A DNA stretch of 49,088 bases from an uncultured bacterium (GTDB lineage: Bacteria; Bacillota_I; Bacilli_A; RFN20; CAG-826), in the NCBI GenBank assembly GCA_949297305.1, contig CASFSG010000057.1:1-49088 (forward strand), read 5' to 3'. The position numbers and the translations under genes were made by a program. The notes under the pieces are model-generated. The model made no database searches. It saw only the letters and a program-made list of their open reading frames with translations, and had not been told where the DNA came from. Below are positions 4,262 to 13,651 of the stretch, piece after piece (the first letter of the stretch is position 1; every line of letters starts with the position of its first letter).

Positions 4262-4737
4262 AATCACGAGCTAGTTATTTGGTTAATTTACTTAAAGAAA
4301 AAGGATTGACGATTGGTAGTGTTGAGTCGATGACAGGAGGAATGTTTGCTAGCGAAATTACTTCAATTAATGGCGCAAGCGAAATTTTTAAAGGCTCGTT
4401 GGTGACTTATTCGCCCCTTGTTAAAGAAAATGTCTGCCATGTTAACAAAGAAACGATTGAGAAAAACGGCGTTGTATCCTATGAAGTAGCTTCGGAAATG
4501 GCATATCGAGGAAGAGAAATTCTCGATGTGGATTTTTGTATTTCTGTTACTGGTAACGCCGGACCTACTAGCGATATTGACAATAAACCTGTTGGAATGA
4601 TTTATATTTCAATTATGGGAAAAGATTATACATGGGGATTGCCACTTAATTTAAAAGGTGAACGCAATCAAATTCGCCAGGAAACTACTTTTATCATGAT
4701 TGATTTTTTGATTAAAACAATTGAATCTATATTTTAA
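4258..4737 (+). CDS. cinA: CinA C-terminal domain / PncC NMN deamidase family
   Basis: VESMTGG, GASEIF, SVTGNAGP, KPVG; pgsA-cinA-recA synteny. Confidence 0.9.
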   Translation: MKSRASYLVNLLKEKGLTIGSVESMTGGMFASEITSINGASEIFKGSLVTYSPLVKENVCHVNKETIEKNGVVSYEVASEMAYRGREILDVDFCISVTGNAGPTSDIDNKPVGMIYISIMGKDYTWGLPLNLKGERNQIRQETTFIMIDFLIKTIESIF

Positions 4738-4776
4738 TTCGGACATTTTAATAAATTTTTTACTATTTAAATAGTG
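4736..4776 (+). promoter_or_regulatory. Shared upstream element, copy 1 (recA): AATTCGGAC-N17-ACTAT-TTAA-ATAGTG
   Basis: Same boxes and spacing as 13611..13651; contains the perfect palindrome ACTATTTAAATAGT (4762-4775). Confidence 0.65.
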
Positions 4777-4788
4777 GAGGTAATTTTA

Positions 4789-5787
4789 ATGAGTAAAATA
4801 GAAGATTCGAATCGTCTTGACGCTTTGAATGAAGCACTTAGAAATATTGAAAAGACCTATGGCAAAGGTTCCGTCATGAAGTTAGGTGAAAGACCATATG
4901 TAGATGTGGATGTTATTCCTTCTGGTTCACTTCTCATCGATAATATCTTAGGTGTTGGTGGATATCCAAAAGGTCGCATTATTGAGATTTATGGTCCTGA
5001 AAGTAGTGGTAAAACAACATTGGCACTACATGCGATTAGCGAATGTCAAAAGATTGGCGGTCGGGCTGCGTTTGTCGATGCTGAACACTCTATTGACCCT
5101 TTATATGCTAAAAATTTGGGTGTTAACATTGATGAATTAATTTTGTCGCAACCAGATAGCGGTGAACAGGCTTTAGAAATTGTTGCGATGTTAGCTAATA
5201 GTGGAGCGATTGATTTAATTATTGTTGATAGTGTGGCGGCTTTAGTGCCTCAAAGTGAAATTGATGGTACAATGAGCGATAATCAAGTTGGTGTTCAAGC
5301 TAGAATGATGTCAAAAGCCATGCGCAAATTAGCTGGTATTTTAAACAGCAATTCATGCACCGTAATTTTTATTAATCAATTGCGAGAAAAAGTTGGTGTT
5401 ATTTATGGCAATCCTGAGACTACTACTGGTGGTCGAGCTTTAAAATTCTATGCCTCTGTTCGACTTGATATTCGTCGTAGCGAAGCGATTAAGGACGGTT
5501 CAAATATTATCGGTAATACTGTTAATGTTAAAGTTGTCAAAAATAAAGTAGCACCACCTTTTAAAGCTTGTCATGTCGATATAATTTATGGCAAAGGAAT
5601 TTCAAAAGTTTCTGAAGTTTTAGATTTAGCAACTGAATATGGTTATATTAAAAAGAGTGGCTCTTGGTATGAATATGACGCTAACCGCATCGGTCAGGGT
5701 CGTGAAAAAGCCAAAGAATTTATTGAAAATAATCCCGATGTTTTTACAAGTTTGGTTGAACTAATTAAAACAGGCGAAAAAAAATAA
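4789..5787 (+). CDS. recA: Recombinase RecA
   Basis: [54 protein letters not shown] gives ATG 4789. Confidence 0.99.
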
Positions 5788-5790
5788 ATA

Positions 5791-5842
5791 AAAAATATCT
5801 GGGTTTTGCACTCTTTTCTAGCGAAATCTAGATATTTTTTTC
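5791..5842 (+). terminator. Terminator-like hairpin after recA
   Basis: AAAAATATCTGGGTTTTGC...GCGAAATCTAGATATTTTT long stem with G-U pairs, then a T run. Confidence 0.65.
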
Positions 5843-11052: not shown

Positions 11053-11737
11053 ATATTTAACGCGATTAAATGGCATAATTAGTAAAGAAGAATTAAATAT
11101 TTTAGAACATAAAACTGTTTTAATTGCTGGATTAGGCGGTGTAGGCGGCGCTTCTTTTATCTCCTTATTGCGTAGCGGAATAAAAAACTTTATTCTCATC
11201 GATTTTGATCGAGTTGATATTAGTAATTTAAACCGTCAAATTTTATATGATACATCTAATTTAGGTTGCTATAAAGTTGATGTCGCAAAAGAATATGCAT
11301 TAAAAATTTCTTCTGATATCAATATTGTTGCTTTAAATTGTCGCGTTGATTGTGAATTTACTAAGCGCGTGGCTGCTTTTAATATTGATTATATAATTGA
11401 TGCAATTGACGATTTAAATGCAAAATTAGAGATTGCAAAATATTCTTTAAAACACAGCGTTCCTTTAATTGTGAGTGCTGGAATGGGTTTAAGAAAAGAT
11501 TCTTCTAAAGTGATGATTAAAAACTTAAATCAAACATATAATGATCCATTAGCAAAAAGAATGCGAAAATTATTTAAAGATAACCATCTCGATATTTCTA
11601 AAATAGATACTGTTTTTTCTATTGAAGAACCTTTGATAAAAAAAGAAGATGATATTTCTTCAATTATTTTTGTTCCGTTACGAGCCGGATCATTGATTGC
11701 CGAACACGTCTTTTATCGCTTAATAAAAAGTAATTAA
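11045..11737 (+). CDS. tcdA: ThiF/E1-like adenylyltransferase, likely tRNA t6A dehydratase
   Basis: GLGGVG, DFDRVDISNLNRQ, IDAID, DPLAKRMRK, VFSIE. Confidence 0.8.
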   Translation: MNEYLTRLNGIISKEELNILEHKTVLIAGLGGVGGASFISLLRSGIKNFILIDFDRVDISNLNRQILYDTSNLGCYKVDVAKEYALKISSDINIVALNCRVDCEFTKRVAAFNIDYIIDAIDDLNAKLEIAKYSLKHSVPLIVSAGMGLRKDSSKVMIKNLNQTYNDPLAKRMRKLFKDNHLDISKIDTVFSIEEPLIKKEDDISSIIFVPLRAGSLIAEHVFYRLIKSN

Positions 11738-11799
11738 TTATTTTATAGTTATCGACAATTACAAGTTTTATAATTGTTTTAGTTTTGGAGGTTATGTTT

Positions 11800-13413
11800 A
11801 TGCTTAAGAAAATTTCTGATATTGCAATAGGTGCAAATATACCACTTGAATATTTAGAACCATACGGATTTTATAAAGGTAAAATCAATATGGAATTATA
11901 TGAAAAATTGAAAAATAAAAAAGATGGAAAACTGGTGCTCGTTACAGCTATTACTCCTACAAAAGCTGGCGAGGGTAAAACGACAACTAGCATTGCTTTG
12001 ACTGAAGGCTTAGCTAAAATCGGTCAAAATGTTATGCTTACATTACGCGAGCCTTCATTAGGCCCGGTTTTTGGAATTAAAGGAGGGGCGACCGGTGGTG
12101 GTTTAGCTTCTATTGAACCTAAAGAAGAAATAAATTTACACTTTACAGGCGATATGCATGCCTTAACAACATCAATCAATTTAATATCTGCTATCATAGA
12201 TAATCATATATTCCGAGGAAATGAATTAAACATCAATCCTAATAAAGTTGTTTGGAAACGCGCGCTCGATATGAATGATCGAGCCTTAAGAGATATCAAA
12301 ATTGGATTAGGAGAGGGTAACGGAATACCTCGTGATGATCATTTTGTCATAACAGTCGCTAGTGAACTAATGGCAATTTTATGTCTATCGAATGATGAAA
12401 AAGATTTCTTAAGAAGAATTAACAATATTATCGTTGCTTATACCTTTGATAACCGCCCAGTTAAGCTTGAGGAGTTAAGAATTTCTCATGCGATAATGAA
12501 GTTAATGCGCGAAGCTTTAAAACCTAATTTAGTTCAAACTGTTGAAAACAATCCAGTCATTGTTCATGGTGGCCCATTCGCCAATATTGCGCACGGCTGC
12601 AATTCTATTATCGCTTTAAAACTTGCTTTGAAACTAGGCGATATCGTAGTGACAGAAGCTGGGTTTGGAGCAGATTTAGGAGCTGAAAAATTTTTAGATA
12701 TTTGTCTACCTAACGCAAACAAGAAATGTGATGGTGCCGTCTTAGTTGCAACTATTCGCGCACTTAAAATGCATGGAGGAGCAAAACTTGAAGATAGTGA
12801 AAAATGCAATATTGAAGCATTGATTAAAGGATCCGAAAATCTTCGTGTTCACGCTGAAAATTTAAAGAAGTTTCATATCCCCTTTGTCATTGCAATTAAT
12901 CATTTTGTATCCGATCATATTGAAGAAGTTAAAGCTTTGGAACAATGGTGCATTAAAAATGGTTATAAAGTAAGTTTTCTCGACGGATTTTTAAAAGGCG
13001 GCGAAGGTTCAATCGATTTAGCTAAGAATGTTGTTGAAATGTTAAAGACCGAAGAAAGTCATTATCAGCCACTTTATGATGCAAATTTACCGATTAAAGA
13101 GAAGATTGAAACTATTGCTAAAGAGATATATCGCGCCAAAGAAGTAGTTTATAGTGATGTTGCTTTAAAACAAATAGCTGAATACGAAAAAATGGGTTTT
13201 GACAAGACTCCTATTTGCATGGCTAAAACACCGCAATCATTATCAGATGATCCTTTAGTTTTAGGTGCTCCAAAAGATTTTACCCTAACGATTCGAGAAA
13301 TTAACTTATCGGCTGGGGCCAATTTTTTGGTAGCGTTAACTGGTAAAATTTTAACAATGCCAGGTTTACCAAAAATTCCTGCGGCTGTTAAAATGGAAGA
13401 TGAACCATATTAA
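11800..13413 (+). CDS. fhs: Formate--tetrahydrofolate ligase
   Basis: TPTKAGEGKTT, GIKGGATGGG, INLHFTGD, HGGPFANIAHG, EAGFGADLGAEKF; SD GGAGG at 11787-11791. Confidence 0.98.
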   Translation: MLKKISDIAIGANIPLEYLEPYGFYKGKINMELYEKLKNKKDGKLVLVTAITPTKAGEGKTTTSIALTEGLAKIGQNVMLTLREPSLGPVFGIKGGATGGGLASIEPKEEINLHFTGDMHALTTSINLISAIIDNHIFRGNELNINPNKVVWKRALDMNDRALRDIKIGLGEGNGIPRDDHFVITVASELMAILCLSNDEKDFLRRINNIIVAYTFDNRPVKLEELRISHAIMKLMREALKPNLVQTVENNPVIVHGGPFANIAHGCNSIIALKLALKLGDIVVTEAGFGADLGAEKFLDICLPNANKKCDGAVLVATIRALKMHGGAKLEDSEKCNIEALIKGSENLRVHAENLKKFHIPFVIAINHFVSDHIEEVKALEQWCIKNGYKVSFLDGFLKGGEGSIDLAKNVVEMLKTEESHYQPLYDANLPIKEKIETIAKEIYRAKEVVYSDVALKQIAEYEKMGFDKTPICMAKTPQSLSDDPLVLGAPKDFTLTIREINLSAGANFLVALTGKILTMPGLPKIPAAVKMEDEPY

Positions 13414-13622
13414 TGAAAGATTTAGCTTACAATTTAAATGATATCGTCGAATTGAAAAAACCTCACCCTTGTAAGGAACATTCAAAGTTGTTTCAAATTG
13501 TTCGTCTTGGAGCTGATTTAAAAATTAAATGTTTAGGTTGTGGAAATGTTTTGATGATATCTCGCGATAATTTTAATTATCGACTGAAAAGAATTGTTTC
13601 AAAAAGTAATAATTCGGACTAA
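13413..13622 (+). CDS. DUF951 family protein
   Basis: DIVELKKPHPC...RLGADLKIKCLGCG. Confidence 0.85.
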   Translation: MKDLAYNLNDIVELKKPHPCKEHSKLFQIVRLGADLKIKCLGCGNVLMISRDNFNYRLKRIVSKSNNSD

Positions 13623-13651
13623 AAGAAAAATTTCTCACTATATTAATAGTG
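13611..13651 (+). promoter_or_regulatory. Shared upstream element, copy 2 (ABC pair): AATTCGGAC-N17-ACTAT-ATTA-ATAGTG
   Basis: Same boxes and spacing as 4736..4776; palindrome CACTAT-N4-ATAGTG abuts the start codon. Confidence 0.65.

Follow-up and report, generated by a model that had tools for sequence, protein, structure and literature searches.

In Bacillus, recA is under LexA/SOS and ComK control. In Mycoplasma genitalium and M. pneumoniae, a recombination regulon depends on sigma-20 (MG428/MPN626), with promoters of the form TTGTCA-N18/19-ATTWAT that lie 7–26 nt before start codons and a −35 box that differs by species (TTGGCR in M. pneumoniae); as described, this regulon includes recA and the transporter MG_390, with a ComEC/Rec2-related gene among the candidate sites (Table 1 of the source), and only region 4 of the sigma factor is recognizably conserved (Torres-Puig et al. 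2015, PMC4446450). In streptococci, lactococci, lactobacilli and staphylococci, a dedicated sigma factor, ComX (sigma-X) or SigH, drives the late competence genes comF, comE, comG, dprA, radC and recA from a short −10 box, both the regulators and the boxes being lineage-specific; the streptococcal cin-box, TTNCGAATAA, is described as a −10 element with no −35 element (PMC9300618). The 49,088-nt stretch of DNA analyzed here (hereafter, the window; contig CASFSG010000057.1 of assembly GCA_949297305.1) comes from an uncultured bacterium (GTDB lineage Bacillota_I; Bacilli_A; RFN20; CAG-826) and contains two similar 41-nt elements, one upstream of recA and the other upstream of a pair of genes for ATP-binding cassette (ABC) proteins. 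An earlier note, made from the sequence of the window, presented these as copies of one regulatory element, either the promoter of a competence-type sigma factor or the operator of a non-LexA repressor.

Judging from sequence, the genome (G000; 1,223,814 bases, 33% G+C, assembly 94% complete, contamination estimate 3.6%) contains at least six copies of one bipartite, promoter-like motif, and the two elements in the window are probably −35/−10-type promoters that belong to a competence regulon and are recognized by an alternative sigma factor or a sigma-like factor. This reading is preferred because the element has the −35/−10 anatomy and because neither LexA (15 bits against a cut-off of 110.95) nor ComK (no match to PF06338) was found in the 94% complete assembly. 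The absence of a LexA box (GAAC-N4-GTTC) before recA, already claimed in the earlier note, is borne out by the window, with no exact match and seven one-mismatch matches, none of them near recA, compared with 11.45 expected. The two copies and the genes around them are the following.

4258–4737, + strand: cinA (Pfam CinA, 151 bits); the 9-mer of copy 1 begins within the stop codon
4736–4776, + strand: copy 1 of the motif (recA copy); distal box CGGAC at 4740–4744, gap of 18 nt, proximal box ACTATTTAAATAGT at 4762–4775
4776–4780, + strand: Shine-Dalgarno (SD) sequence GGAGG of recA, read from the sequence, directly 3′ of the proximal box
4789–5787, + strand: recA (ATG at 4789; Pfam RecA, 448 bits)
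13413–13622, + strand: DUF951 open reading frame (ORF; Pfam DUF951, 78 bits); the terminal codons and the stop contain the distal box of copy 2
13611–13651, + strand: copy 2 of the motif (ABC copy); distal box CGGAC at 13615–13619, proximal box ACTATATTAATAGT at 13637–13650, then G and the ATG
13652–15730, + strand: ABC protein 1; N-terminal ATPase (Pfam ABC_tran, 111 bits), C-terminal membrane part without a Pfam match
15727–18504, + strand: ABC protein 2; ATPase and FtsX-type permease (Pfam ABC_tran, 118.6 bits; FtsX, 35.4 bits)

The two copies have the anatomy that was originally ascribed to them. They share the 9-mer AATTCGGAC (4736–4744 and 13611–13619), a spacer of 17 nt in which AAATTT occupies the same position and the palindrome ACTAT-N4-ATAGT (4762–4775 and 13637–13650), and are identical in 30 of the 41 bases (manual count; a script agrees). 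Both end at translation signals, copy 1 on the GGAGG of recA and copy 2 one base short of the ABC ATG (13652). The 9-mer is unique in the window and occurs once more in the genome, within an ORF on the opposite strand; in copy 2, it encodes N-S-D, the final three codons of the DUF951 ORF. The AAATTT is not common to the other genomic copies of the motif. An Rfam scan of the window detects only RNase P RNA and seven tRNAs, with nothing at either copy.

Neither overall identity nor the palindrome distinguishes the two elements from background, and both were rejected as stand-alone evidence. Among 437 upstream regions compared all-against-all, 49 non-repeat pairs reach 30–32 identical bases of 41, and the palindrome alone has two matches with at most one mismatch in the window compared with 2.46 expected (73 of 100 shuffles reach 2), while 4 of its 7 exact sites in the genome fall within ORFs. 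These figures would suit a chance resemblance of two A+T-rich upstream regions. The same all-against-all comparison, however, brought up a third region, in which CGGACATTTTAAT and CTATATAAATAG of the recA copy recur. The core pattern CGGAC-N18-CTAT-N4-ATAGT has three exact matches on the two strands of the genome (2 × 1.22 Mb), compared with about 0.008 expected from base composition, no one-mismatch match and two two-mismatch matches; at three mismatches, there are 55 matches, mostly within ORFs. All three exact matches adjoin start signals, those of recA, the ABC pair and comFA, and the two-mismatch matches are one 15 nt 5′ of comEA and one within an ORF. What exceeds chance is the distal box, which contains G and C, in a fixed register with the proximal box, recurring before competence genes. 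With a third exact copy and at least three weaker copies, all before competence genes, with the leave-out ranking given below and with a replicate in a second genome of the same genus where the distal box is different, mere coincidence is extremely improbable.

The scan of the whole genome, proposed in the earlier note as the way to find further sites, yields copies before comFA-comFC, comEA-comEC, dprA, a small ORF followed by radC, and an operon that encodes a T2SSE-type ATPase. The third exact site abuts the ATG of a Zn-finger DEAD-box helicase gene, downstream of which are a ComF-family gene and secA, i.e. the comFA-comFC arrangement. The comEA gene (TIGR00426, 79.3 bits, cut-off 53.1) has comEC next downstream. 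A matrix built from the four strong sites adds sites before dprA (Pfam, 233.8 bits) and before a 59-aa ORF and radC (78.9 bits). This 59-aa ORF (C64:15651–15745, − strand), which lies between the motif and radC, encodes one membrane helix, has a GGAGG of its own and is probably co-transcribed with radC. The distal variant GCGACAC precedes an operon for a T2SSE-type ATPase and TadB/C-like membrane proteins (hereafter, the type-IV-filament operon) and also a gene for a thioredoxin-like lipoprotein (weak Pfam match, 19 bits, below the cut-off) that is followed by pcrA and ligA. The region of the thioredoxin-like gene is present in two near-identical copies on separate contigs (C22:10589–11125 and C55:810–1310), which may reflect assembly redundancy or a mixture of strains. 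Overall, one promoter-like box is common to operons for DNA uptake and processing (comF, comE, comG-type, dprA and recA). No copy of the motif was found in the genome scan before uvr, ruv or dinB-type genes, where an alternative SOS regulon would have placed it.

In a leave-out test, a matrix derived solely from the comFA, comEA and dprA sites was used to scan the genome on both strands. Behind the training sites, the order is radC (28.2 bits), recA (27.9), the filament operon (23.9), an intragenic match, rplS and the ABC pair (16.3), so that, among the non-training sites, recA ranks second and the ABC pair sixth genome-wide. The recA copy is firmly a member of the regulon because this matrix ranks it directly behind the training sites, and the ABC copy, although its score is weaker, is a member too. 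The site before rplS (C35:20603–20645, 16.5 bits) and the intragenic matrix matches were set aside as probable false positives. Genome-wide, the motif is restricted to the competence and associated genes named here.

In the motif, a distal −35-like box, (T/G/A)CG(G/A)AC, is followed after 17–18 nt by a proximal −10-like box, (A/C)CTAT-WTWA-ATAG, which sits directly on the SD sequence at recA and comEA and 9–10 nt before the ATG at the ABC pair and comFA. In the proposed mechanism, a dedicated alternative sigma or sigma-like factor would direct RNA polymerase to these sites and jointly switch on comFA-comFC, comEA-comEC, dprA, radC, the type-IV-filament operon, recA and the ABC pair. We infer that the element includes a transcription start, where that start would lie and what kind of factor would read it. 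Given the proximity of the proximal box to the ATG, the comFA and ABC mRNAs would be leaderless, which is probable for the ABC pair. The comFA gene has no SD sequence, and a TAT hexamer starts 11–13 nt before its start codon in at least 9 of 21 genomes; in G000, the hexamer lies 13 nt before the ABC ATG. This spacing matches the −10 geometry expected for a leaderless mRNA. TATAAT-like hexamers 7–10 nt before an ATG, with no SD sequence, are also seen elsewhere in the window (2793–2912, 18515–18814, 41393–41512 and 48141–48192), including a TTGACA-16-TATATT at 18515–18542 in the gap 5′ of ychF; given these several genes, leaderless mRNAs may be common in this organism.

The proximal box is where the other branch of the earlier proposal can be judged. 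If a dimeric non-LexA repressor bound ACTAT-N4-ATAGT over the start site, the palindrome would be the key unit, and CTA(T)...(A)TAG is indeed palindromic at four G000 sites (recA, ABC, comFA and comEA), as is the proximal box in some other genera, e.g. CCTATTTATAATAGG in G014. It is, however, not the palindrome that is conserved: dprA, radC, the filament operon and the thioredoxin-like gene lack the 3′ half, ATAG; in another genome of the same genus (G001), the recA site is no longer palindromic; the palindrome alone occurs at the chance level; and an operator would leave the distal box with its fixed spacing unexplained. Of the two alternatives offered in the earlier note, the competence-type sigma promoter is supported by the sites at competence genes, whereas the operator has no support of its own and is quite improbable.

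An alternative that retains the promoter but dispenses with a dedicated sigma factor is that TATWTW is an ordinary −10 box of a sigma-A promoter and that an activator, e.g. the 121-aa MG284-like protein considered below, binds the distal box and replaces the missing −35 contact. In many genera, the proximal box approaches TATAAT and is conserved order-wide while the distal box changes by genus, and the model of the MG284-like protein has a region-4-like domain and no recognizable region 2, all of which would suit such a scheme. Against it, conservation extends to the C or CC that precedes TAT and to the AATAG that follows, which is more than a plain −10 box requires, and only one of the four strong G000 sites has T at the sixth position of the hexamer. 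Sigma region 4 reads DNA as one short, asymmetric word placed exactly at the −35 distance; the distal box has this form, which fits either scheme. On balance, a sigma-A promoter with an activator is unlikely compared with the promoter of a dedicated factor.

The conservation of the motif can be gleaned from the upstream regions of recA, the ABC pair, comFA, dprA and comEA, which were compared in 37 genomes of the order, with motifs read by eye. The coupling of recA to the ABC pair, asserted in the earlier note from two sites, is upheld in G000, G001 and G002; judged by eye, it extends to many further genera of the same family. G002, in which RecA is 98% identical, retains both copies with few changes despite the ABC protein being only 65% identical. 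G001 (same genus, 100% complete) has the distal box TTGRCAC instead: the pattern TTGRCAC-N17-CTA has 10 matches compared with one for the reversed control, 5 of them before ABC, dprA, comEA, comFA and the MG284-like/filament operon and 5 within ORFs. In this genome, the ABC site carries the variant TTGACAC, and the recA site reads TTGACAC-N17-TTA. A repeated coding segment (TTGACACATCGGAG...) in a repeat-protein gene at contig ends of G001 (C5:15569–15838 and C15:128–154) fits the G001 pattern by chance.

The proximal box (C)C(C/G)TAT(T/A)TAT(A/T)A recurs across the 37 genomes before comFA, dprA, comEA, recA and the ABC pair; GGAGG comes after it, except at comFA, where the start codon follows directly. 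The distal word varies by genus and is common to the com genes of that genus and, in many genera, often to the ABC pair and recA as well; read by eye, the words are TTTYGGTAAAA in G014, TTTTGAATAAT in G009, ATTCGCGT in G011 and ATTTTAMAA in G007. No motif is visible by eye in the regions upstream of the ABC pair in G011, G016 and G029. In at least 15 genomes, the ABC pair lies 9–22 kb from recA on the same contig.

The proximal box of the relatives is usually found in a hairpin loop; these hairpins are stable, and their 3′ arm is the ribosome-binding site, often followed by a T-run. Measured against 100 mononucleotide shuffles of each upstream region, z-scores below −2 are reached at 17 of 22 ABC, 14 of 24 dprA and 12 of 23 comEA regions, compared with 1 of 30 for recA and 1 of 21 for comFA; the stem sequences vary between genera while the pairing is retained. 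The hairpins in G000 are weak (−6.4 kcal/mol, z −1.6, at the ABC pair; −5.9 kcal/mol, z −1.7, at recA). At the ABC loci of L038, L044, L050 and other relatives, the ABC pair lies directly 3′ of the formate-tetrahydrofolate ligase gene (fhs), and the box-containing hairpin looks like the intrinsic terminator of fhs with the ABC ribosome-binding site in its 3′ arm. The box in the loop, the SD sequence in the 3′ arm and the pairing kept across differing stems could mean that the inverted repeat acts in RNA, as a terminator or an SD-sequestering hairpin, and is not a DNA signal at all. Yet the G000 hairpins are weak, hairpins are rare at recA and comFA although the sequence box is conserved there, and the pattern fits an insulating hairpin added around a promoter, not a substitute for one; a purely RNA-level element is very improbable. 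We infer instead that the hairpin is an insulating terminator around the promoter, of which G000 keeps only a weak remnant, and this remnant may account for the palindrome that was noticed at the two sites.

The search for a factor that could read the motif leads to two kinds of candidates, neither of which is universal among the genomes. G000 encodes the primary sigma factor and one extracytoplasmic function (ECF)-type sigma factor, with a membrane protein encoded downstream of it. G002 encodes a second ECF-type sigma factor (171 aa) 5.5 kb from the filament operon; at this locus (L184, G002:C26, 7419–11560, − strand), it stands beside 493-aa and 689-aa proteins of no known family. The second ECF-type sigma factor is probably missing from the G000 assembly because contig C15 breaks off where the 690-aa homologue begins. 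Neither of the two ECF-type factors is linked to the motif. The other candidate is a 121-aa protein (C15:5918–6283) that heads the filament operon and belongs to the NCBIfam family MG284/MPN403 (69.8 bits, cut-off 37.3). In its AF2 model (pLDDT 80.1), residues about 52–121 align on region 4 of sigma factors in 10 of the 12 top VIA-align rows (Z 5.0–7.0), the best being 3hug_A (Z 7.0, root mean square deviation 2.8, 74 residues aligned). The protein weakly matches NCBIfam ArpU (E 0.0028), and one homologue is labelled a specialized sigma subunit by JGI. The region upstream of the MG284-like gene itself has the motif in G000, G001, G007, G010 and G014. The MG284-like protein is present in 18 of 26 genomes and, on a profile re-search of five (G004, G012, G015, G027 and G028), in one more, G028. 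In G011 (90% complete), TIGR02937 detects only the primary sigma factor, yet both the motif and the MG284-like protein are present. With a C-terminal half that resembles region 4, the part of sigma that reads the −35 box, in the model and with the motif upstream of its own operon, the 121-aa protein is the leading candidate for the factor, with the ECF-type sigma factors as the alternative. To our knowledge, the MG284/MPN403 family is uncharacterized in Mycoplasma, and the literature search found no paper on it.

Several observations weigh against a competence regulon with a dedicated factor. Sequencing runs that contain positions 4200–14100 of the window comprise three runs of unknown kind, available as contigs and from one study, and no RNA run. 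Neither site in the window matches the sigma-70 consensus in this register (CGGACA-18-TATTTA at recA and CGGACT-18-TATATT at the ABC pair): both fall short of a sigma-A promoter defined as TTGACA, 16–18 nt and TATAAT with at least 4 of 6 bases per hexamer and T at position 6, with only 3 of 6 bases in the first hexamer of the ABC site. Neither is among the best 60 of the 93 promoter-like sites detected by a sigma-70/terminator consensus scan of the window, a scan that is uninformative in A+T-rich DNA (108.9 sites expected). The ABC site scores clearly below recA in the leave-out matrix (16.3 and 27.9 bits). When the distal regions were compared within and across genomes, a crude test of similarity with a mixed outcome, the ABC region beats all 13 controls in 5 of 14 genomes, ranks third in 2 (two controls reached their score) and is unremarkable in 7, and the recA region beats all controls in 3 of 19. 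With respect to the candidate factor, Foldseek finds no match to the 121-aa model at E ≤ 0.001 (best E 0.54) and the VIA Z-scores are middling (≤7). The MG284-like protein was not found, even by profile, in G004 (99% complete), G012, G015 and G027, and in G004, where the usual place of this protein lacks it as well, the proximal box is nonetheless very clear. Relatives of the G000 ECF-type sigma factor were found in only 19 of 26 genomes.

Among the described systems, the Mycoplasma sigma-20 regulon is the nearest, and the boxes here match neither those of sigma-20 nor those of ComX/SigH. As in the published account of sigma-20 (PMC4446450), the predicted promoters have a bipartite sigma-70 architecture with a long spacer, a lineage-specific −35 box and a site near start codons, and recA would be regulated together with an ABC transporter and a ComEC-like gene. 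Spacing is alike as well (18–19 nt between xGGACA and TATWTW), whereas the boxes are different, CGGAC ... CTATWTWAATAG. Compared with the sigma-20 regulon as tabulated, the set here includes the full DNA-uptake machinery (comFA, comEA-EC, dprA, radC and the filament operon), the scan showed no site at ruvAB, and the ABC proteins are of the ATPase-first kind with an FtsX-type permease; in NCBIfam, ABC protein 1 has generic ABC matches only, and the gene for ABC protein 2 overlaps the stop codon of that for ABC protein 1. The 121-aa candidate belongs to MG284/MPN403, a Mycoplasma family other than MG428/MPN626. The resemblance to ComX/SigH regulons, as these are summarized in PMC9300618, is in the gene content under one box at −10. 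Unlike the cin-box, the G000 proximal box, (A/C)CTATWTWAATAG, is of the CCTAT type, and many genera add a specific distal box; TCGTATTTATAAT- or TCGAATTTATTAT-like boxes, which come close to the cin-box, are found only in some outgroup families (G027 and G029), and no ComX or SigH orthologue was identified. As in Bacillus, recA would be under a stress or competence regulator, although here with no LexA box, no LexA above the cut-off and no ComK in the 94% complete assembly.

A more speculative combination of these elements, which we consider possible rather than probable, joins an MG284-like minimal sigma-like switch, hairpin gating and a role for the ABC pair in the transformation machinery. 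The factor, little more than region 4, may read the genus-specific −35 box and activate competence, including its own operon. In most of the family, where the −10 box sits in the loop of a terminator-like hairpin, transcripts that read through would be terminated or untranslatable, and the ribosome-binding site would be exposed only in transcripts initiated within the hairpin. As for the FtsX-type ABC pair, it would be a conserved component of the transformation machinery that has escaped notice until now.

These results delineate a concrete candidate competence regulon for an uncultured, genome-reduced order of Bacillota with class B RNase P, genomes of about 1 Mb and no LexA or ComK found. 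Six or more operons are named, along with a putative promoter rule in which the −35 box varies by genus and candidate regulators of two kinds, and an FtsX-type ABC pair is linked to transformation across the whole family; the Mycoplasma sigma-20 regulon, as described, likewise pairs recA with an ABC transporter of unexplained role. The analysis suggests a function for the MG284/MPN403 family, and the hairpin-embedded promoters, if confirmed, would be an insulation device.

Elsewhere in the window, the class B RNase P RNA lies at 3283–3606 (272.9 bits). The true start of the neighboring CDP-alcohol phosphatidyltransferase gene is probably further downstream than annotated by the longest ORF (TTG at 3584), since the latter overlaps the 3′ end of this RNA. 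The tRNA genes, all on the − strand, form a six-gene cluster (29082–29614) and a single gene (37144–37225).

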